A DNA stretch of 64,000 bases from Candidatus Enterousia sp. (GTDB lineage Bacteria; Pseudomonadota; Alphaproteobacteria; Rs-D84). Under the pieces are notes generated by a model. That model had not been told where the DNA came from and ran no database searches. It saw only the letters and a list, made by a program, of their open reading frames with translations. Of the stretch, positions 1,435-62,966 are shown one piece after another. The DNA lies in assembly GCA_045654485.1 (NCBI GenBank), contig JAZONN010000005.1, forward strand, positions 2,105-66,104, in the 5' to 3' direction. Position numbers and translations under genes: made by a program. The first letter of the stretch is position 1; every line of letters starts with the position of its first letter.

Positions 1435-2982
1435 TTACTGCATACGCACCACGTGACAAGGTGACTTTCCGCCGGTTTGCTTGATTAATTTGTTGCACAA
1501 TGTTTGCGCTTCATCAATTGTCGCAATTGGACCAATACGAAGGCGGTATAGGCGTGCGGTTGATGCACCGGCACCTAAATCCCCAATGCCTTGTTCGTCG
1601 ACGGCAAAAAATACATCGTCTACATATGGTGTTAATAAACCGGATTCGGCACCTGAAAAGCGTGCTAACAATTCGCTCCAATATTGATCTAATGCATCAA
1701 CCGAAGTGTCGGATTGTAATTCAACCGCAACACCAGATTGATTGCTTGCGATAACTGGAATATTATTTTGTGGCAAATATGCGCCTGCTGTATTCCTTTG
1801 TGTTGGTAACATGTTTATAACACTGCCTGTGCCGGTTGCGGGCAATTGTGTTGGTATACCGTATCCCGCAGGCATATAATAACCCGCCCCGTTTACTGGG
1901 TTAGTTGCCGGTGTGTTGCCGACATATACAGGTGTTCCTGTGTAATTTGTTCCCATACTCATTGCGGCCATACTATCGGTATATGCGATATTGTTCAATG
2001 ATTGGCCCGATAACATACTTTGTGCAACGTTTGCCTCGGCCAAAGCCATAACGGATGCGGTATCTGCGATTAAGAATGGTTTTTCACGTTTTTTTATACA
2101 TACAATTCTTTGGCCACTGCGTAATACCATATCGCCAACCGCCTCTACGATTAACAAGCGGCCGTCTTCACCATCTGTGCGAAATCCAACGGGGGATTCG
2201 CCACCTTCTACCAACAAAGATACAACCGGTCTTTGTGTCATAGAAATTACTTTGTCGCCAAAATCAATGTATGTGAAAATACGATCACGCCATACACGTT
2301 CTGGTGCAATTACATAATCGTCTGGATTTGGTACGTATATATCTAAATCAAAGCGGAATTCAGATGGGTCGATTTTCATTGATTTTATCCATCCATAATC
2401 TTCGCCATCAACACCAACAGTAACCGGCCCGCTAGATTTTTTTGTGAATATAGAACCTGCGCCGCCGCTGGCTTTCTGGCCACCGGCCGATGCGATTGCT
2501 GGTGTATTGCCATCTAATACAACATCTACTTGGGAATATGTAATTTCACTGGCGTTTGCTGGCTCGGCACGTAAATAGAAAATATATCTATTGCCTGAAT
2601 TGCCGGTCACGATCATATTTGTGTCAGAACCATAGTTGTCGGTTGCTGGGCTAATAAACATTGTTTTATCGCCTTGGGTTGCGTCAACCACGAATTGACC
2701 GCTATCTCCGATTTGGATATCAGATATTTGTTCGCCCATTGGCAGATTGACCATGGTCAACATCCCGTTACGCAATTTGATTGGTAAAACCGAACCCTGA
2801 GACCAAGCCAACTGGGCATACCCCGGTTTTATACTGCCACTGGCCATATTGGCGGTTGGGTTGTCCCATGCGTATTGAACACCGTTACCTGGCTCGGCAA
2901 ATGCATCCCAAGATGCACACGTTAATAGCCCGACAACTGCGAACGCCAAAACATTGCCCATAAATACTTTTGACCGGTTCAT
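1435..2982 (-). CDS. virB9: Type IV secretion VirB9/TrbG/CagX-family protein with long C-terminal extension ending in a SPOR-like domain
   Basis: Signal peptide MNRSKVFMGNVLAFAVVGLLTCASWDAFA. VirB9 N-domain pattern: LTMVNLPMGEQISDIQIGDSGQFVVDATQGDKTMFISPATDNYGSDTNMIVTGNSGNRYIFYLRA. VirB9 C-domain pattern: RIFTYIDFGDK...RPVVSLLVEGGESPVGFRTDGEDGRLLIVEAVGDMVLRSGQRIVCIKK. A G/T/P/N-rich linker and a SPOR-like tail (ARLYRLRIGPIATIDEAQTLCNKLIKQTGGKSPCHVV) follow. I prefer ATG 2982, preceded by AGGAAGG, over the TTG at 2988 used by the ORF track. Confidence 0.88.
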   Translation of the reverse strand: MNRSKVFMGNVLAFAVVGLLTCASWDAFAEPGNGVQYAWDNPTANMASGSIKPGYAQLAWSQGSVLPIKLRNGMLTMVNLPMGEQISDIQIGDSGQFVVDATQGDKTMFISPATDNYGSDTNMIVTGNSGNRYIFYLRAEPANASEITYSQVDVVLDGNTPAIASAGGQKASGGAGSIFTKKSSGPVTVGVDGEDYGWIKSMKIDPSEFRFDLDIYVPNPDDYVIAPERVWRDRIFTYIDFGDKVISMTQRPVVSLLVEGGESPVGFRTDGEDGRLLIVEAVGDMVLRSGQRIVCIKKREKPFLIADTASVMALAEANVAQSMLSGQSLNNIAYTDSMAAMSMGTNYTGTPVYVGNTPATNPVNGAGYYMPAGYGIPTQLPATGTGSVINMLPTQRNTAGAYLPQNNIPVIASNQSGVAVELQSDTSVDALDQYWSELLARFSGAESGLLTPYVDDVFFAVDEQGIGDLGAGASTARLYRLRIGPIATIDEAQTLCNKLIKQTGGKSPCHVVRMQ

Positions 2983-3026
2983 AATCAATCCTTCCTGTTT
3001 TCTTTTAATGTGTTATAGCACTATTT

Positions 3027-7189: not shown

Positions 7190-7387
7190 ATACCGGCGTA
7201 AAAGACGTATGTTAAAATATACACAAGACAACAGCAGGGCAAAAAGGAGATTGTTAAATAAATTGTGGTCTGGTAATTCATTCTTAATTATCCGACATCT
7301 TTGATGAAAATATTCACAATTTATTTAAGAATTTTCTTTTTGCCCCGCTTCGTTTGCAAAACACACAGAAAAAAAGGATTAAAACCG

Positions 7388-16048: not shown

Positions 16049-17125
16049 ATGTCAGAAGATAAGAAAATTATTGCTATTGATGCCATGGGTGGTGATAAAG
16101 GGCCTAATGCGGTTCTGGGTGGCATGAATCAGTATTTATATCAAAACGGCGAAGGTAATGTATATTTTCGTCTGTTTGGTGATGAAAAGAAAATCCGTAA
16201 ATTATTGGCGAAATATCCGCGCGTATCCCGTAATACCGAAGTTATACACGCGCCAAACGTTATCAAAGGTACGGACAAGGTTATGGATGTTTTGCGTCAC
16301 GCCCAAGATACATCTATGTATATGGCGATAAAAGACGTACGTGAAGGCAAATCTGCCGCAGTTATCAGTGCCGGCAACACCGGTATATTGATGTCTTTGT
16401 CAAAATTGGCATTAAAAACAATTGATGGTATCGCACGTCCGGCCATTACCACTATGTTGCCATCTGGTGCCGGTGACAGTCGTGTTGTGGTATTGGATTT
16501 GGGTGCAAACGTTCATTGTGATGAAAATATATTGTTTGACTTTGCCGTATTGGGCAGTGTTTATGCCGAAGTTGTCGGTAAAATGCCCCGACCAAAATTG
16601 GGTATCTTAAACATTGGTTCCGAAGAAACCAAAGGAAACGAAGTTTTAATCCATTTGAACAAGGTCTTGACCGCCAACAAAGACAGATTGCCATACGAAT
16701 ATATGGGCTTTGTCGAAGCGAATGATATCAGTGCCGGTAAAGTCCAAGTTGTTGTGACAGACGGCTTTACGGGTAATATTGTATTAAAGACGGTCGAAGG
16801 TACGGCCAAGTTAATCAAACGTGTTGTCGTTGAAAATTTCAAGAAATCGATTTTGGCGATGATTGGTGCGTTTTTCTTGGTGCACGTATTTAAACGTTTA
16901 AAGCATAAAATTGATCCACGTTCATATGCGGGTGCAACGTTCTTGGGTTTGCGTGGTTTTGCGTTTAAAACCCATGGTAATAGTGACGCATTGGCATTTG
17001 CAAATTCGATTAAATATGCGGCCGGTTTGACCAAGGCGAACTTAAATGGTTTAATCGAAGAACGTGCCCGTGCATTGGCGGACGTTCGTGCACAAATTAG
17101 TGCCGATAAAGAAACCGAAAAATAA
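16049..17125 (+). CDS. plsX: Phosphate acyltransferase PlsX
   Basis: N-terminus IAIDAMGGDKGPNAVLGG and FTGNIVLKTVEG are PlsX hallmarks. Confidence 0.95.
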   Translation: MSEDKKIIAIDAMGGDKGPNAVLGGMNQYLYQNGEGNVYFRLFGDEKKIRKLLAKYPRVSRNTEVIHAPNVIKGTDKVMDVLRHAQDTSMYMAIKDVREGKSAAVISAGNTGILMSLSKLALKTIDGIARPAITTMLPSGAGDSRVVVLDLGANVHCDENILFDFAVLGSVYAEVVGKMPRPKLGILNIGSEETKGNEVLIHLNKVLTANKDRLPYEYMGFVEANDISAGKVQVVVTDGFTGNIVLKTVEGTAKLIKRVVVENFKKSILAMIGAFFLVHVFKRLKHKIDPRSYAGATFLGLRGFAFKTHGNSDALAFANSIKYAAGLTKANLNGLIEERARALADVRAQISADKETEK

Positions 17126-17129
17126 AAAA

Positions 17130-17159
17130 AATCCCGCATTTGCGGGATTCTTTATTTTT
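17130..17159. terminator. Bidirectional intrinsic terminator (plsX / 82-aa gene)
   Basis: The sequence aaaaaaaATCCCGCAttTGCGGGATtctttattttt has an A-run on the left and a T-run on the right. Confidence 0.8.
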
Positions 17160-23194: not shown

Positions 23195-24880
23195 TTAATT
23201 TTCTGATTTTTGTTTGCCAATGCCATAGGTATCTTTGTTGATAATTAAATTTCCTGTGGTGGCCCCTACTGCACCAACGCCACCAACAACCGCACCTGCG
23301 GTAATATAATTTTTAGATTTTTTTGTCTGTTCTGCCCATGCGGTTGCATCTGGGCCATTTGGGTCTAAAACAGCGCGCGCCAAAGATGTATACATACCCG
23401 TTCTTTGGCCTGATGACACGTCGTCATATAATCCAGATGTTGCAGAATTTAATATTGGTTCGCTTTCAATGCCACGTGGTAATCCCAATTGTTCTTTGTG
23501 TGTTTTTACGTTGTTTGCCAAAGTCACATATTCTGCATATAAATTGACCAATTCATCTGAAATGGGCAACGTGGTTGGTTGTGTGTCGTATTTAGTATTA
23601 TTATCGTTACCGTATTTGCATTGAAAAGTTGCGACATAGTTCTCCATTTGGGCCATTGCTTTTTCATCGGCATTTTTTTCTGCTATTCCCATTCCTAACA
23701 TCATACCGCCTGCACCGGTGGCTGCTATTGACGCGCCACCTAAAATTTTATTGGCATTTCTTTGTTCGTTCGCAAGTGCACGTTCATAGTTTTCCCTTAA
23801 TTTTTCATAATCGTTTGCGACGCTCAGCATGGTTAGAAATTCTCTGTTGTTCATATTTTCTGCGCCACTTGCGGGCTTATTTAATCCGCTGGTTTGTTCC
23901 GCTTCTGTTAATTGTTGCCTTTGGGCGTCCAAATCTGCTTGGGTTTCTTCGTCGCTTGGTTCGTATGTTGGTGCCGTTGGACGTTTAATTTGTTTCATTT
24001 CTGCCAATGCATCGACAAATTCGTTTGTTCGTATCCCAAGTGGTGTGTATACATCGTCTTCATAACTATCTATTCCACCATGTATAATTCCATGTAATGT
24101 CCCACCGTAAAAGTATGGGCCGCCGGAATCACCGTGCCATGTATCACATGTTGAAATAAATTTGCCACGCTGATTTATATACTTATTTTTCAATATCCCC
24201 AAACTGTTTATTTGTGGGATTTCGATTATTTCACAATTTATGTGTGCTTTTAATTTGAATTCCCATTCGCCGGGTTCTTTGCTGTTGGGAACACGGCTGT
24301 CGTCCAAATAAATGTTGTATTTATCGCGTACAATCGGTCTGATGGCCTTGTACACAGTCAAATAATCGTCGTTTGGTCTGTTTTTTGCCTGATCCATAAA
24401 AACTTTCTTGCACTGGTTAATTTGTTCTTCGCTTAATATGGCCAGTGATGAAAAACCTGCTGTTGTGACAGTCCTTTTTGTTGTTTTTTCTGCAACGTCA
24501 AAGAAATCGGACCGGTGCAGGTTTGGGTCGTATAAGCGCAATAGTGCCCAATCAGCATGGGCCATATTTTGTCCATATTTTTCCAACGTTGCTTTGCCAC
24601 GTTTATTATCGTGTGTCCATATATCAAACTCCTTGCCTATTTTTACATAGTTATCAAAGTTTGGATTTTCGGTCACGCAATGTCGTGCGGTCAAAATAAT
24701 ATCTGGTGCAACATATTCTGCGGTACATGTGCCTGTTGGTGATGGATAAAAATATACGATTTTATTATATGGTGGTTGGCTCCAATCTACGTATTCTCGT
24801 TCATCGGTACTGCCTATATTTGCATATGTGCATGTGCTGTACAGGATTAGAATAGCAGATATTGCTATTTTTTTTGTCAT
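23195..24880 (-). CDS. Secreted trypsin-like (S1 family) serine protease with ~260-aa C-terminal extension containing two Gly-zipper hydrophobic segments
   Basis: Signal peptide MTKKIAISAILILYSTCTYA. Catalytic His context ILTARHCV and catalytic Ser context CDTWHGDSGGPYF. The C-terminal part has an acidic/coiled linker plus GGASIAATGAGGMMLGMGIA and AGAVVGGVGAVGATTG. I prefer ATG 24880, with GGGGA 9 nt upstream. In-frame alternatives are ATG 24889 and the ORF-track start at 24961. Confidence 0.85.
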   Translation of the reverse strand: MTKKIAISAILILYSTCTYANIGSTDEREYVDWSQPPYNKIVYFYPSPTGTCTAEYVAPDIILTARHCVTENPNFDNYVKIGKEFDIWTHDNKRGKATLEKYGQNMAHADWALLRLYDPNLHRSDFFDVAEKTTKRTVTTAGFSSLAILSEEQINQCKKVFMDQAKNRPNDDYLTVYKAIRPIVRDKYNIYLDDSRVPNSKEPGEWEFKLKAHINCEIIEIPQINSLGILKNKYINQRGKFISTCDTWHGDSGGPYFYGGTLHGIIHGGIDSYEDDVYTPLGIRTNEFVDALAEMKQIKRPTAPTYEPSDEETQADLDAQRQQLTEAEQTSGLNKPASGAENMNNREFLTMLSVANDYEKLRENYERALANEQRNANKILGGASIAATGAGGMMLGMGIAEKNADEKAMAQMENYVATFQCKYGNDNNTKYDTQPTTLPISDELVNLYAEYVTLANNVKTHKEQLGLPRGIESEPILNSATSGLYDDVSSGQRTGMYTSLARAVLDPNGPDATAWAEQTKKSKNYITAGAVVGGVGAVGATTGNLIINKDTYGIGKQKSEN

Positions 24881-24903
24881 TCGTGTCATCCCCACATCGG
24901 TAC

Positions 24904-24934
24904 AAAAATAAAACCGCCATTGGGAAATGGCGGT
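24904..24934 (-). terminator. Intrinsic terminator inside the protease leader
   Basis: The minus strand reads ACCGCCATTtcccAATGGCGGTtttattttt. It ends about 24 nt before the protease ATG. Confidence 0.8.
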
Positions 24935-25121
24935 CGGGGTGTTCGAAAAGTCATTACACAAATAACCCCGTTGCTTTCAATATATAACAACGGCACCCCG
25001 ACCGTATATGGTGGGGTAAAAATAACGGTGCGAACGGCACCGATATTACATCGGATTACGATGCTTTCGCACCGTGTGTAATGGGCTTTTCGAAGGCCCG
25101 AACCCAAATCCCTTTGGATTC
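24935..25121 (-). promoter_or_regulatory. Structured leader RNA (riboswitch-like aptamer candidate plus antiterminator) upstream of the protease gene
   Basis: An 18-bp closing helix pairs 25075-25083 with 24952-24960 and 25086-25094 with 24942-24950. Internal helices pair 25066-25074 with 25026-25034 and 24988-24993 with 24968-24973. An 11-nt perfect complement (24994-25004 versus 24931-24941) competes with the terminator stem. Confidence 0.6.
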
Positions 25122-25127
25122 AGGCAT

Positions 25128-25156
25128 ATTATACAATAAAAAAACATAAAATTCAA
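25128..25156 (-). promoter_or_regulatory. Putative promoter (TTGAAT-N17-TATAAT) of the leader/protease transcript
   Basis: The minus strand reads aaTTGAATtttatgtttttttattgTATAATatg. Confidence 0.5.
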
Positions 25157-25172
25157 TTGTGGTAATAAAAAA

Positions 25173-26084
25173 TTAACTCTTGGCACGTGGGTGTGCGTGT
25201 GCGTATATGTTGGAAATTTCCGCCATATTTACTTTGGTGTATAACTGGGTTGTGGACAATGATGAATGTCCCAATAGTTCTTGCAAACTACGTAAATCGG
25301 CACCGCCGGCCAACAATGCGGTTGCAAATGTGTGGCGTAATGCGTGTGGCGTGACATAGTCGGGCAATTGCAACCAATGTCTTAAATTTTCTACAACTTT
25401 CTCGGCCATACGTGCCGACATTGGCAACCCGCGTACGCTGCGAAATAATTCGTCATCGGCATCGTTTCCAAATGGGCGCAGTTTAATATATTTATCAATT
25501 GCGTCCCAAACAATTGGCAGAACCGGCACCAATCTTTCTTTGTTTCCTTTGCCGACAATGTTTAATACTTCGGGGTGGCCTTGGATATTGCGGTTGGTTA
25601 ATCCCAATGCTTCGGATATTCGCAGTCCGCATCCAAACAATAATACCACCAACGCCCAATCACGTGCCGCAATCCACGGTTCTGCTGAATCTATACTATC
25701 GATTGCGTCACGCATATTTTTGACATCTATTGCATCGATTGCTTTGGATAATTTTCGTGGTACTTTTGGTGAAGATATTAATCCTATGGCTTCGTTTTTT
25801 ATGCCGTATTTTTTTGTTAAATACTTAAAAAATCCACGTACAGATGATAATGTTCGTGCGGTTGATTTGTGCGCTAATCCACGTCTTTGTTGGTCGGCCA
25901 AAAAAGATCGAAAGAATATCGTGTCCAAACGCGCCATATCTTTCAGGGATGGTGTTGCGCCGGAAAATTTTACATAAAATTTCAAAAAATCTGAAATGTC
26001 ACGTTCGTATGCCGTTGCGGTGTGTTCCGAATAGTGCTTCGTTTGTTTCAAGTAATTTATAAAATCCGCAACGGCATCATTCAT
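25173..26084 (-). CDS. Site-specific tyrosine recombinase, XerC/XerD family
   Basis: N-terminal core-binding domain (FINYLKQTKHYSEHTATAYERDISDF). Catalytic region has the R...HxxR...Y signature (PHALRHTFATALLAGGADLRSLQELLGHSSLSTTQLYTKV). Confidence 0.9.
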   Translation of the reverse strand: MNDAVADFINYLKQTKHYSEHTATAYERDISDFLKFYVKFSGATPSLKDMARLDTIFFRSFLADQQRRGLAHKSTARTLSSVRGFFKYLTKKYGIKNEAIGLISSPKVPRKLSKAIDAIDVKNMRDAIDSIDSAEPWIAARDWALVVLLFGCGLRISEALGLTNRNIQGHPEVLNIVGKGNKERLVPVLPIVWDAIDKYIKLRPFGNDADDELFRSVRGLPMSARMAEKVVENLRHWLQLPDYVTPHALRHTFATALLAGGADLRSLQELLGHSSLSTTQLYTKVNMAEISNIYAHAHPRAKS

Positions 26085-35057: not shown

Positions 35058-35071
35058 TCGATATTCGATAT

Positions 35072-35099
35072 AAAAAATCCCCCGTTTGGGGGATTTTTT
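35072..35099 (+). terminator. Intrinsic terminator after rplI
   Basis: aaaaaATCCCCCgtttGGGGGATttttt. Confidence 0.85.
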
Positions 35100-35785: not shown

Positions 35786-36328
35786 TTATTGCGCTTGACG
35801 TTTGTGTTGCCAATATCTGTCGATACTTTCCATGATTAATTTGTCTGCGGTTGCACGATCGGCCCAACCGGTGATTTTTGACCAAGAATGTGGCTGCAAA
35901 TCTTTATAGTGCTGAAAGAAATATTCGATTTTAGAACGCAGAATTTCTGGCAATTGTTCAATAAATTCGATGTTTTCATAATATGGGTCGATTTTATCGC
36001 GTGGCACACAGATGATTTTTTCATCGCCGCCCGCTTGGTCTTCCATCAACAGTGCGCCGATTGGGCGTACTTCGATAATAACGCCGGGGCGCAGTGGGGC
36101 ATTACATACCACAACACAATCCAATGGGTCTCCATCATCGCCCAATGTACCTGGGAAATATCCATAGTTCGCAGGATATGCCATAGGTGCGTGCAAAATT
36201 CTGTCTACTTTTAACAGTCCTGTTTCTTTATCAATTTCGTATTTAACGTGCCCGTTTTCAGGAATTTCAATAATTGCATTCATTTTCTTTGGTGGCAATT
36301 TTCCTGGGGCTATTTCGCCAATTGTCAT
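35786..36328 (-). CDS. ppa: Inorganic pyrophosphatase (family I)
   Basis: NAIIEIPENGHVKYEIDKETGLLKVDR...YPANYGYFPGTLGDDGDPLDCVV. Confidence 0.95.
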   Translation of the reverse strand: MTIGEIAPGKLPPKKMNAIIEIPENGHVKYEIDKETGLLKVDRILHAPMAYPANYGYFPGTLGDDGDPLDCVVVCNAPLRPGVIIEVRPIGALLMEDQAGGDEKIICVPRDKIDPYYENIEFIEQLPEILRSKIEYFFQHYKDLQPHSWSKITGWADRATADKLIMESIDRYWQHKRQAQ

Positions 36329-36409
36329 ATTTATTGTCCTTTTTTATGTTTTTATCGGACAATCTTACCACAAAAAAACACGAATGCAATTATTTGTGAA
36401 TCCTTATTA

Positions 36410-55419: not shown

Positions 55420-55486
55420 TTTAATCCCCCGTTTGGTGCATTTTTATTATTGAATCTCAATCAAAAATTCACTAAATTTATGTTAA

Positions 55487-62899: not shown

Positions 62900-62943
62900 C
62901 CCTTTTAAGAAGGATTATCTTAATACCTTTTAATTACAAAGTC

Positions 62944-62966
62944 AAAAAAATCCCCCAATGGGGGAT
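62944..62966 (-). terminator. Intrinsic terminator after the cyclophilin gene
   Basis: The minus strand reads ATCCCCCattGGGGGATttttttt. Confidence 0.8.

Follow-up and report, generated by a model that had tools for sequence, protein, structure and literature searches.

The DNA analysed here is a 64-kb stretch of contig JAZONN010000005.1 from Candidatus Enterousia sp., which we refer to as the window. Its genes trpS, SIMPL and xerC are followed by a structured non-coding leader, a gene for a secreted protease, and adk, in that order. The leader is the subject of this work. A first-pass annotation had described it as a riboswitch-like attenuator with its own promoter, dedicated to an extracellular protease and possibly representing an undescribed element. 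The features of the leader and of the gene behind it are listed below (nt, nucleotides; bp, base pairs).

25156-25128, minus strand: sigma-70-type promoter, -35 box TTGAAT (25156-25151), 17-nt spacer, -10 box TATAAT (25133-25128), from a consensus scan.
25121-25100, minus strand: 5'-terminal hairpin P0, GAAUCC (25121-25116) paired with GGGUUC (25105-25100), loop AAAGGGAUUU, present in the minimum-free-energy fold.
25099-25083, minus strand: small hairpin Pa, GGGC (25099-25096) paired with GCCC (25086-25083), read from the sequence.
25094-25086, minus strand: a1, the 5' arm of helix P1a, UUCGAAAAG, presented in the Pa loop.
25083-25075, minus strand: b1, the 5' arm of helix P1b, CAUUACACA, with its partner at 24960-24952.
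25074-25059, minus strand: spacer hairpin P2, CGGUGC-GAAA-GCAUCG, 25074-25069 paired with 25064-25059.
25042-25026, minus strand: spacer hairpin P3, CGGUGC-CGUU-CGCACCG, 25042-25037 paired with 25032-25026.
25017-25011, minus strand: segment (1), ACCCCAC, a possible partner of segment (2) in a candidate anti-antiterminator hairpin.
25003-24994, minus strand: segment (2), GGUCGGGGUG, which pairs with 24941-24932 and is the 5' strand of the helix closing the 3' domain, that is, the antiterminator strand.
24993-24968, minus strand: P4, the first hairpin of the 3' domain, CCGUUGUU (24993-24986) paired with AGCAACGG (24975-24968), 8 bp.
24966-24963 paired with 24953-24950, minus strand: mini-hairpin P5, whose loop carries b', UGUGUAAUG (24960-24952).
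24950-24942, minus strand: linker after P5 with a', CUUUUCGAA, ending in an invariant AAC (24943-24941).
24941-24932, minus strand: segment (3), CACCCCGACC, the strand common to both switch folds, whose 3' end GACC opens the terminator stem.
24935-24904, minus strand: intrinsic terminator, GACCGCCAUU-UCCC-AAUGGCGGUU (24935-24912) followed by UUAUUUUU (24911-24904), from a terminator scan.
23195..24893, minus strand: the presumptive regulated protease gene, Shine-Dalgarno sequence GGGGA (24893-24889), ATG at 24880, stop codon at 23195.

Both the proposed promoter TTGAAT-N17-TATAAT at 25156-25128 and the intrinsic terminator just ahead of the protease ATG were recovered by these scans. With a transcript start predicted near 25121, the leader extends over approximately 218 nt to position 24904 on the minus strand and holds no credible open reading frame. 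The terminator stem (24935-24912) consists of 10 pairs with a UCCC loop, and the protease ATG (24880) lies 23 nt past the end of the U-tract. A 250-nt leader RNA folded at -104.9 kcal/mol, compared to -71.6 +/- 4.9 kcal/mol for 200 dinucleotide shuffles (z -6.83), none of which folded as well. The data support the idea of a structured, non-coding 5' leader with its own promoter upstream and an intrinsic terminator at its end. All of the pairings that had been read from the window were present: the 18-bp closing helix reads as claimed (9+9 bp, 25094-25086 with 24950-24942 and 25083-25075 with 24960-24952) and lies in the minimum-free-energy fold, 25004-24994 is perfectly complementary over 11 nt to 24941-24931, and ACCCCAC (25017-25011) is able to pair with the same core segment. 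The hairpin 24993-24988 with 24973-24968 likewise exists, as part of an 8-bp hairpin (24993-24986 with 24975-24968). One reading needed revision: the 9-bp helix of 25074-25066 with 25034-25026 is possible in the window copy, but the relatives support the separate local hairpins P2 and P3 in its place. A terminator-like match of the scan at 25042-25026 corresponds to P3. Newly added to the structure were P0, Pa, P5 and P1c, the last of which lengthens the closing helix by 4 bp (25100-25097 with 24938-24935).

The protease is a 561-amino-acid secreted protein with a trypsin domain, as judged from the open reading frame list, a Pfam Trypsin match and its homologues. An in-frame ATG at 24889 was rejected as its start; this codon reads ACG in a relative with a 96%-identical protease, so 24880 is the start. 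The last approximately 190 amino acids (window 23195-23780) form a conserved domain that has no Pfam match and includes two hydrophobic stretches rich in glycine. The N-terminal domains to which this C-terminal domain is joined in the same bacteria vary (trypsin, OmpA, CarboxypepD_reg-like or none recognised), and many of the genes encoding it have the leader or a leader variant upstream (loci L009-L079).

When the whole window was searched against Rfam at gathering thresholds, only two transfer RNAs were reported and nothing at the leader, as the first-pass annotation had supposed in finding no known family. A permissive scan of the leader region returned a sub-threshold match to sRNA-Xcc1 (RF02221) and otherwise noise only. 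We therefore turned to relatives of the leader, starting from loci with relatives of the protease, which were fetched from species-representative genomes, all belonging to uncultured gut Alphaproteobacteria and many labelled Candidatus Enterousia. The leader itself was found in about 10 of these loci, ahead of several different genes. A metagenome scan with a pattern made from the most conserved 3' bases yielded at least 120 loci, at least 64 of which matched the leader sequence profile; most of these were full-length, and a few were partial or cut by a contig end. The other 56 pattern loci were discarded as candidate distant relatives, as they failed to match the profile and were random pattern matches in GC-rich contigs of soil and freshwater origin. 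Family searches relied on a sequence profile (nhmmer) and on a covariance model of the 3' domain, R1, which was built from the leader family only. After removal of near-duplicates, the alignment set comprised 63 distinct full-length members from genomes and metagenomes, so that the family counts at least 63. Its hosts are gut, rumen and termite Alphaproteobacteria of the order Rs-D84, whose genomes are smaller than 1 Mb and show reduced metabolism (PMC12306168). In the 64-kb window, a repeat finder, blastn and the covariance model found no further copy; the leader is thus not a local repeat.

The members share one plan, in which the promoter is followed by P0, Pa with a1 (a 4-5-bp G/C hairpin), b1, one or two hairpins of the CGGUGC-GAAA-GCAUCG type, segments (1) and (2), P4, P5 (AUCA/UGAU, with b' in the loop), the linker UUU-a'-AAC, segment (3), the terminator, the U-tract, the Shine-Dalgarno sequence and the start codon. 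Short members, such as L005, have a single spacer hairpin (P2 or P3) rather than both. The consensus sequences are UCCCUGACC for segment (1), GGUCGGGGAG for segment (2), CUCCCCGACC for segment (3), UAUAAAACA for the P4 loop and GACCGCC/GGCGGUC for the terminator, and the invariant unpaired nucleotides are UGU/AAG around a1, CGUUA, UAUAAAACA, AAUCA, UGAUUU and AAC. The distance from the end of the -10 box to the first conserved base, the G of GAAUCC, is 6-7 nt in 55 of 62 members. That the region might simply be the 3' untranslated region of xerC is unlikely, given that these 55 members have the promoter at a fixed position whatever lies upstream. At the other end, a start codon with a Shine-Dalgarno sequence follows on the same strand 14-53 nt past the leader terminator in most members, a gap that leaves no room for a separate promoter of the downstream gene.

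Next to the conservation of this plan, the alignment of the 63 members provided strong covariation. For the OFF fold, defined as P0, P1c, P1a, P1b, P2, P4 and the terminator together, 87% of cells were paired versus 74.5% in shuffles, the covariation score was 0.407 versus 0.18 (shuffled) and at most 0.10 (slid registers), and double changes occurred in 35 of the 50 pairs. Among the local hairpins, P0 (helix 1 of the family alignment) was 91% paired with compensatory changes in 4 of 5 pairs, P2 94% paired with 5 of 6 pairs compensated, and P4 (family helix 7) 93% paired with 7 of 8 pairs compensated. Pa was 89% paired and covaried with GC, AU, GU and UA types. The terminator was paired in 99% of cells, with compensatory changes in 2 pairs, and a U-tract was present in nearly all members. 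The a/b helices, P1a and P1b, are the most variable parts of the leader, with compensatory changes in 12 of their 13 pairs; all 7 pairs of P1b covary with the four Watson-Crick types being common, and one pair of P1a reads UA in 20 members, AU in 17, CG in 14 and GC in 10. Moreover, the own 5' arms were the best partners of the 3' arms in 63 of 63 members (mean z -6.2).

Segment (3) covaries with two partners. On the one hand, its CCCG (24938-24935) pairs with the 5' CGGG (25100-25097) as P1c, for which the column pair 31/310 reads GC 52 times and AU 6 times. On the other hand, it pairs with segment (2) in the antiterminator, a 10-bp helix that is 97% paired in the family (column pair 227/306: AU 38, UA 11, GU 10, CG 1, GC 1) and takes 3 bp (ACC) off the terminator stem. 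Pa and P1c draw on the same G residues, and both covary. Because segment (3) covaries with two partners and the (2):(3) helix overlaps the terminator stem, the alignment supports two mutually exclusive predicted folds: P1 with the terminator (OFF), and Pa with a closed 3' domain lacking the full terminator (ON). The terminator/antiterminator choice that had been proposed from the window is accordingly conserved, with covariation in the 63 relatives behind it. For the window copy, the OFF fold was calculated at -96 kcal/mol (minimum free energy) or -92 kcal/mol with its helices enforced, and the ON fold at -81.8 kcal/mol. OFF being more stable by approximately 10-14 kcal/mol, the default state of the window copy is predicted to be OFF.

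The helices contain 374 G-U pairs versus 71 A-C mismatches, an excess which indicates that the structure is that of the RNA of the minus (leader) strand. This asymmetry bears on the suggestion that the leader acts at the DNA level, as a miniature inverted-repeat mobile element, an attC-like site or an invertible promoter, and that its accessory-gene setting results from mobility. Such an element would fit with the multiple copies in front of accessory, surface and defence genes, with their occurrence on prophage contigs, with the tyrosine recombinase gene xerC directly upstream in the window, and with the report of sRNA-Xcc1 in integron cassettes (bioRxiv 10.1101/2025.06.18.660453). We nevertheless consider it highly improbable: the strand-specific bias for G-U is meaningless for DNA, the repeat arms differ wholly between copies and would be unrecognisable to any recombinase, the orientation to promoter, terminator and start codon is fixed, and the window holds no other copy. 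We also rejected xerC as an integron-type integrase or recombination partner, as it encodes a standard 303-amino-acid XerC (SAM-like N-terminal and catalytic domains) in housekeeping synteny that is kept in a close relative.

The prophage contigs are those of two further members found in IMG/VR. One (L204, 12535-13455) is located past a tail-gene module and ahead of a 228-amino-acid protein of no known kind; the other (L205, 4879-5600) is near a large serine recombinase/integrase and a polymerase, ahead of a secreted protein. Both positions are like those of phage 'moron' cargo genes.

Several copies illustrate how the leader varies. The strain with the 96%-identical protease has the same trpS-SIMPL-xerC-leader-protease-adk order and a leader that is approximately 96% identical (L210/L211 2705-3012 versus window 24870-25175). 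There, 6 of about 13 substitutions fall in the terminator hairpin, where several C-to-U changes leave G-U pairs and one change adds a mismatch, and a G-to-A change in segment (2) is mismatched with both partners; this leader may be a weakened or drifting switch. In another subtype, CUCCUGACC/GGUCAGGAGG replace CUCCCCGACC/GGUCGGGGAG and P4 is shorter (L001 2740-3010, L059 1-210 and L052 2700-2900; also L002, L003, L073, L074 and L076). When read whole, the L001 leader of this subtype (2740-3010) keeps the plan of P0, Pa/a1, b1, P5/b', a' and terminator, and the subtype heads protease homologues in L001, L002 and L003. R1 additionally found weaker variant copies directly upstream of many genes sharing the C-terminal domain of the protease. 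Finally, two copies on one contig (L092 78-290 and 5870-6150; L059/L060; L001) had wholly different a/b address sequences in the only three cases, with L059 beginning inside the leader so that only its a'/b' is readable. Unlike codes on one contig are what we would expect if cross-talk is avoided.

To characterise the genes behind the leader, we annotated 53 downstream proteins with Pfam and NCBIfam. Matches were to 21 Pfam families, none of which occurred in more than 4 members. Envelope and surface proteins comprised outer-membrane beta-barrels, an autotransporter, lipoproteins, Opacity/OmpA-like porins, TRL and BON proteins, as well as the surface repeat proteins PMP, Flg_new, BspA-LRR and PARCEL-repeat, while other kinds were two trypsin proteases, a GT2 glycosyltransferase, a C5 DNA methylase, a GmrSD enzyme and a NERD protein. 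Of the ten cytoplasmic-looking proteins, five were matched by PADLOC models (type II methylase, Orf5/HEC-06/GmrSD, PDC-S11, PD-Lambda-3_A and, weakly, PDC-M15A). The downstream set is one of accessory envelope-and-defence genes and not a metabolic pathway. The leader is hence not a dedicated regulator of an extracellular protease, as had been thought, since the same leader heads very different genes.

The same mixture weakens the view that the leader is an orphan riboswitch, whose conserved core of several helices, with an internal loop and possible pseudoknots, would bind a small molecule or ion and thereby stabilise P1 (OFF) or (2):(3) (ON). What recommends this view is the complex, strongly covarying structure with invariant unpaired nucleotides, its combination with a textbook terminator/antiterminator platform, so that a structured core and a mutually exclusive expression platform are both present, and the lack of a match to any known riboswitch family. 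Moreover, c-di-GMP (cyclic di-GMP)-type riboswitches precede mixed surface and secreted-protein genes, and a ligand here would likewise have to be a global signal, for example a second messenger, rather than a pathway metabolite. However, no gene set for the synthesis, transport and use of one ligand was found among the 53 proteins, which have no common pathway, transporter or cofactor and include a DNA methylase, GmrSD, PD-Lambda-3 and PDC-S11; such mixed downstream genes make a single-metabolite riboswitch unlikely. The hosts, with their genomes below 1 Mb, have a reduced metabolism (PMC12306168), the most variable parts of the leader are two paired address segments, as in c4-type RNAs, and both the architecture and the reciprocal model matches described below tie the leader to antisense RNAs that work by RNA-RNA pairing. 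On balance we regard an orphan riboswitch as unlikely, and the proposal of a ligand-sensing, protease-specific one found no support.

The sub-threshold Rfam match proved informative. The sRNA-Xcc1 model scored 30.4 bits on window 24925-25002, which, with a gathering score of 53, does not make the leader a member by the Rfam rule. Relatives scored 31.3-38.4 bits, and seven members were matched at 30-38 bits in full register; the best alignment (L005, 38 bits) covered model positions 1-87 with the same helices and with loop motifs in common. In this register, P4 is aligned to hairpin 1 of sRNA-Xcc1. Conversely, R1 recognised three bona fide sRNA-Xcc1 RNAs, from a Nitratidesulfovibrio plasmid, a Pseudomonas plasmid and a Neisseria chromosome, at 31-41 bits (E values 1e-6 to 1e-8), the same RNAs being scored at 69-73 bits by Rfam. 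The 3' domain of the family follows the domain plan of sRNA-Xcc1, the window copy being without the inner 3-bp GGG/CCC mini-hairpin of P4 that most relatives have. The leader is therefore not wholly undescribed: it reaches no Rfam family, yet it is related to known RNAs, its 3' domain being a divergent relative of sRNA-Xcc1, and it probably belongs with the c4/sRNA-Xcc1 class, outside any curated family.

The three bona fide sRNA-Xcc1 RNAs read here are themselves leaders of a downstream gene. At these loci a terminator-like hairpin is located past a1/b1, and the following genes encode a hypothetical protein or a BRO-family protein. The Nitratidesulfovibrio (L212, 560-830) and Pseudomonas (L213, 680-830) loci have c4-style a2/b2 over the Shine-Dalgarno sequence of the next gene, and the Neisseria locus (L214, 560-1020) carries two tandem sRNA-Xcc1 copies. 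In Xanthomonas, the gene next to sRNA-Xcc1 is symE (bioRxiv 10.1101/2025.06.18.660453).

Kinship with sRNA-Xcc1 also raises the question whether the leader is the gene of a trans-acting small RNA, with a terminated transcript of approximately 215 nt or a c4-like species of approximately 90 nt as its product, a role as proposed for sRNA-Xcc1 and its Xylella homologues, and with read-through into the protease being incidental. The leader has its own promoter and a strong terminator, and sRNA-Xcc1, to which its 3' domain is similar, was detected in Xanthomonas as an 88-nt RNA by Northern blot and RACE (rapid amplification of cDNA ends; PMC2996969). Against this, the start codon and Shine-Dalgarno sequence 14-53 nt past the U-tract make the genes of most members dependent on read-through, the sole match of a'/b' is to their own a1/b1, neither the 300 nt downstream nor the rest of the window holding another cognate match, and with approximately 10 hypervariable bp per copy a shared trans regulon is implausible. 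We judge a trans-acting small RNA gene to be improbable.

The leader also shares a feature of phage c4 RNA: an upstream a1, in a hairpin loop, and b1 are complementary to a'/b', and this complementarity is cognate-specific in 63 of 63 members. The covariance models C4 (RF01695), c4-a1b1 (RF03163) and isrK (RF01394) gave no match at E<=10 for the window leader, E<=0.5 for nine relatives and E<=1 for L005, whereas the three models reach 68.8, 51.0 and 35.1 bits on phage P1. When R1 was run on P1, its best placement was c4, in register but weak (9.7 bits, E 0.04). Moreover, we searched the 63 members for a2/b2 sites that could bind a'/b', using two statistics, each compared to non-cognate members, with the own 5' arms as positive control (z -6.2); no cognate-specific signal was found in the terminator region, the first 90 nt or nt 90-300 downstream. 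Nor was the phage-immunity context of c4 recovered, as only 2 members reside on IMG/VR contigs, before cargo-like genes.

Taken together, we think it fairly probable that the leader is an antisense module of the c4/sRNA-Xcc1 type that has turned into a self-contained transcription attenuator and is present in multiple copies in the Rs-D84/Enterousia lineage. According to this model, the 5' part presents the locus-specific a1 (in the Pa loop) and b1, to which the a' and b' of the 3' domain are complementary. In the OFF state, a'/b' would pair with a1/b1 (P1a, P1b), extended by P1c (CGGG:CCCG); segment (3) would thus be kept from segment (2), the terminator would form and transcription would stop 23 nt before the protease start codon. 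In the ON state, when P1 is not formed, the 3' domain would close through (2):(3), removing 3 bp (ACC) of the terminator, RNA polymerase would read through, and the masking of the anti-Shine-Dalgarno-like CUCCCC would free the ribosome-binding site. The switch is thus predicted to act by termination in vivo. Candidate triggers are anything that occupies a1/b1 or a'/b', such as the processed or terminated leader of the own locus acting in trans, as do c4, P4 CI and IsrK, or an RNA-binding protein; by analogy to these systems, we would favour an RNA or RNA-binding protein over a small metabolite, a global small-molecule signal being possible.

Several points weigh against this attenuator model. 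Termination and read-through are deduced from sequence alone. No a2/b2 sites lie at the ribosome-binding site within 300 nt downstream, and such sites are what defines the output of c4 and sRNA-Xcc1. Given the missing matches to the C4 clan (CL00128) and the weak R1 score, shared descent with c4 is unproven and the layout could be convergent. The role of the (1):(2) hairpin is uncertain, this pairing being 82% paired in the family without covariation beyond conservation. The two-state picture may be too simple, since P1a and P1b might form together with Pa and P5, as pseudoknots, and the conserved internal loop (GCUGU opposite AACUC) together with the loop UAUAAAACA could form a pocket for a ligand or protein.

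A more specific version of the attenuator model, which we regard as rather unlikely, would have the terminated or processed leader act in trans exclusively on the nascent transcripts of its own locus by means of the approximately 10-bp a/b code. It would occupy a1/b1, so that the nascent 3' domain would close and be read through. If true, this would create self-sustaining ON and OFF states, amounting to an RNA-based phase variation of single surface-protein and anti-phage genes without any change in DNA; elsewhere, surface and defence genes are switched by DNA-based phase variation. It would also mean that a phage immunity device was domesticated into genome-wide regulation in hosts with genomes below 1 Mb and little other visible regulation of such genes.

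More generally, the leaders constitute a large and well-supported structured RNA family (at least 63 full-length copies) outside Rfam 15, and they link sRNA-Xcc1, which has been viewed in the literature as a trans-acting virulence small RNA, to the phage c4/a1b1 class. They suggest that rewiring can give this class a built-in transcription terminator as output in place of a translation block, and they point to RNA-RNA addressing as a main control of outer-surface and anti-phage genes in uncultured, genome-reduced gut Alphaproteobacteria (Rs-D84/Enterousia). As a short, modular and default-OFF element with a programmable 10-bp code, the leader is also a potential orthogonal genetic switch.

Apart from the leader, the window contains a few other repeated or structured sequences. 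At 754-905, GGTTCT/GGTTCC-type 6-nt units form 8 overlapping copies of a 44-nt repeat, probably a coding, Gly-Ser-rich low-complexity stretch. Local inverted repeats are present at 7233-7349 (35-nt arms, 89% complementary, 47-nt gap) and 36269-36394 (30-nt arms, 83% complementary, 66-nt gap), both possibly other structured elements or long terminators. The short motif AAAAAATCCCCC-NNNN-GGGGGATTTTT recurs at 17119-17152, 35065-35098, 55423-55445 and 62938-62964 and resembles a group of similar bidirectional intrinsic terminators.

Among known systems, sRNA-Xcc1 is close to the leader in its 3' domain. Both have a G-rich closing helix (GGYCGGGG.../...CCCCGRCC), a hairpin 1 with AUAnAAnA, an inner 3-bp GGG/CCC and GAAA, and a hairpin 2 followed by a U-rich linker before the closing strand. 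Like the leader, true sRNA-Xcc1 members are located directly upstream of a gene and co-oriented with it, and upstream of them lie an a1 (in a small hairpin) and a b1 that can pair with the linker and the hairpin-2 loop, as is clear in L212 and L214. The two differ in that a2/b2 at the ribosome-binding site is found in true sRNA-Xcc1 (L212, L213) but not in the leader family, whereas the terminator overlapping the closing helix, the 5'-terminal hairpin, the one or two spacer hairpins and segment (1) are exclusive to the leaders. Moreover, sRNA-Xcc1 also occurs on plasmids and genomic islands, is described in the literature as a free-standing trans-acting small RNA, and is kept outside the C4 clan by Rfam.

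Phage P1 is annotated in GenBank with the order promoter, a1, b1, c4, a2, b2 and icd-ant, and its c4 region and the leader have their parts in the same order: a hairpin follows the promoter, a1 then lies in the loop of a small G/C hairpin, b1 and a spacer hairpin come next, and last is an RNA with two hairpins and a closing helix, which carries b' in the hairpin-2 loop and a' in a linker ending in AAC. In the Rfam C4 consensus the linker with a' ends in CAAC, and the CGGG[a1]CCCG hairpin of the c4-a1b1 family matches the Pa of the leader. As in c4, where the a/b segments differ between P1 and P7 as specificity determinants, those of the leader family vary and yet stay complementary. While c4 blocks translation of icd through a2/b2, thereby preventing expression of ant, the leader has no a2/b2 and a built-in terminator as its putative output; and while c4, located upstream of an antirepressor, serves phage immunity from a single copy, the leader is multi-copy, chromosomal and placed before envelope and defence genes.

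According to PMC4825925, the CI RNA of satellite phage P4 pairs with sequences on both sides of its own and thereby brings about premature termination. In Salmonella Gifsy-1, termination yields a short IsrK that works in trans on the read-through form of this transcript (PMC4825925), and the Rfam isrK model, when placed on P1, spans the a1/b1 hairpins and a terminator. In P4 CI (seqA-seqB-seqC, compared here by description) and IsrK, as would be the case in the leader, pairing of a processed or terminated RNA with complements in the same leader decides on transcription or translation; these RNAs control phage replication or antitermination genes, and the trans action demonstrated for them is hypothesised for the leader. 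Finally, the leader resembles the expression platforms of riboswitches and attenuators in having three consecutive complementary segments and a terminator, with a long-range P1-type helix that would decide between the folds, but, unlike these, it comes without a coherent ligand gene set, a leader peptide or a match to a riboswitch model.

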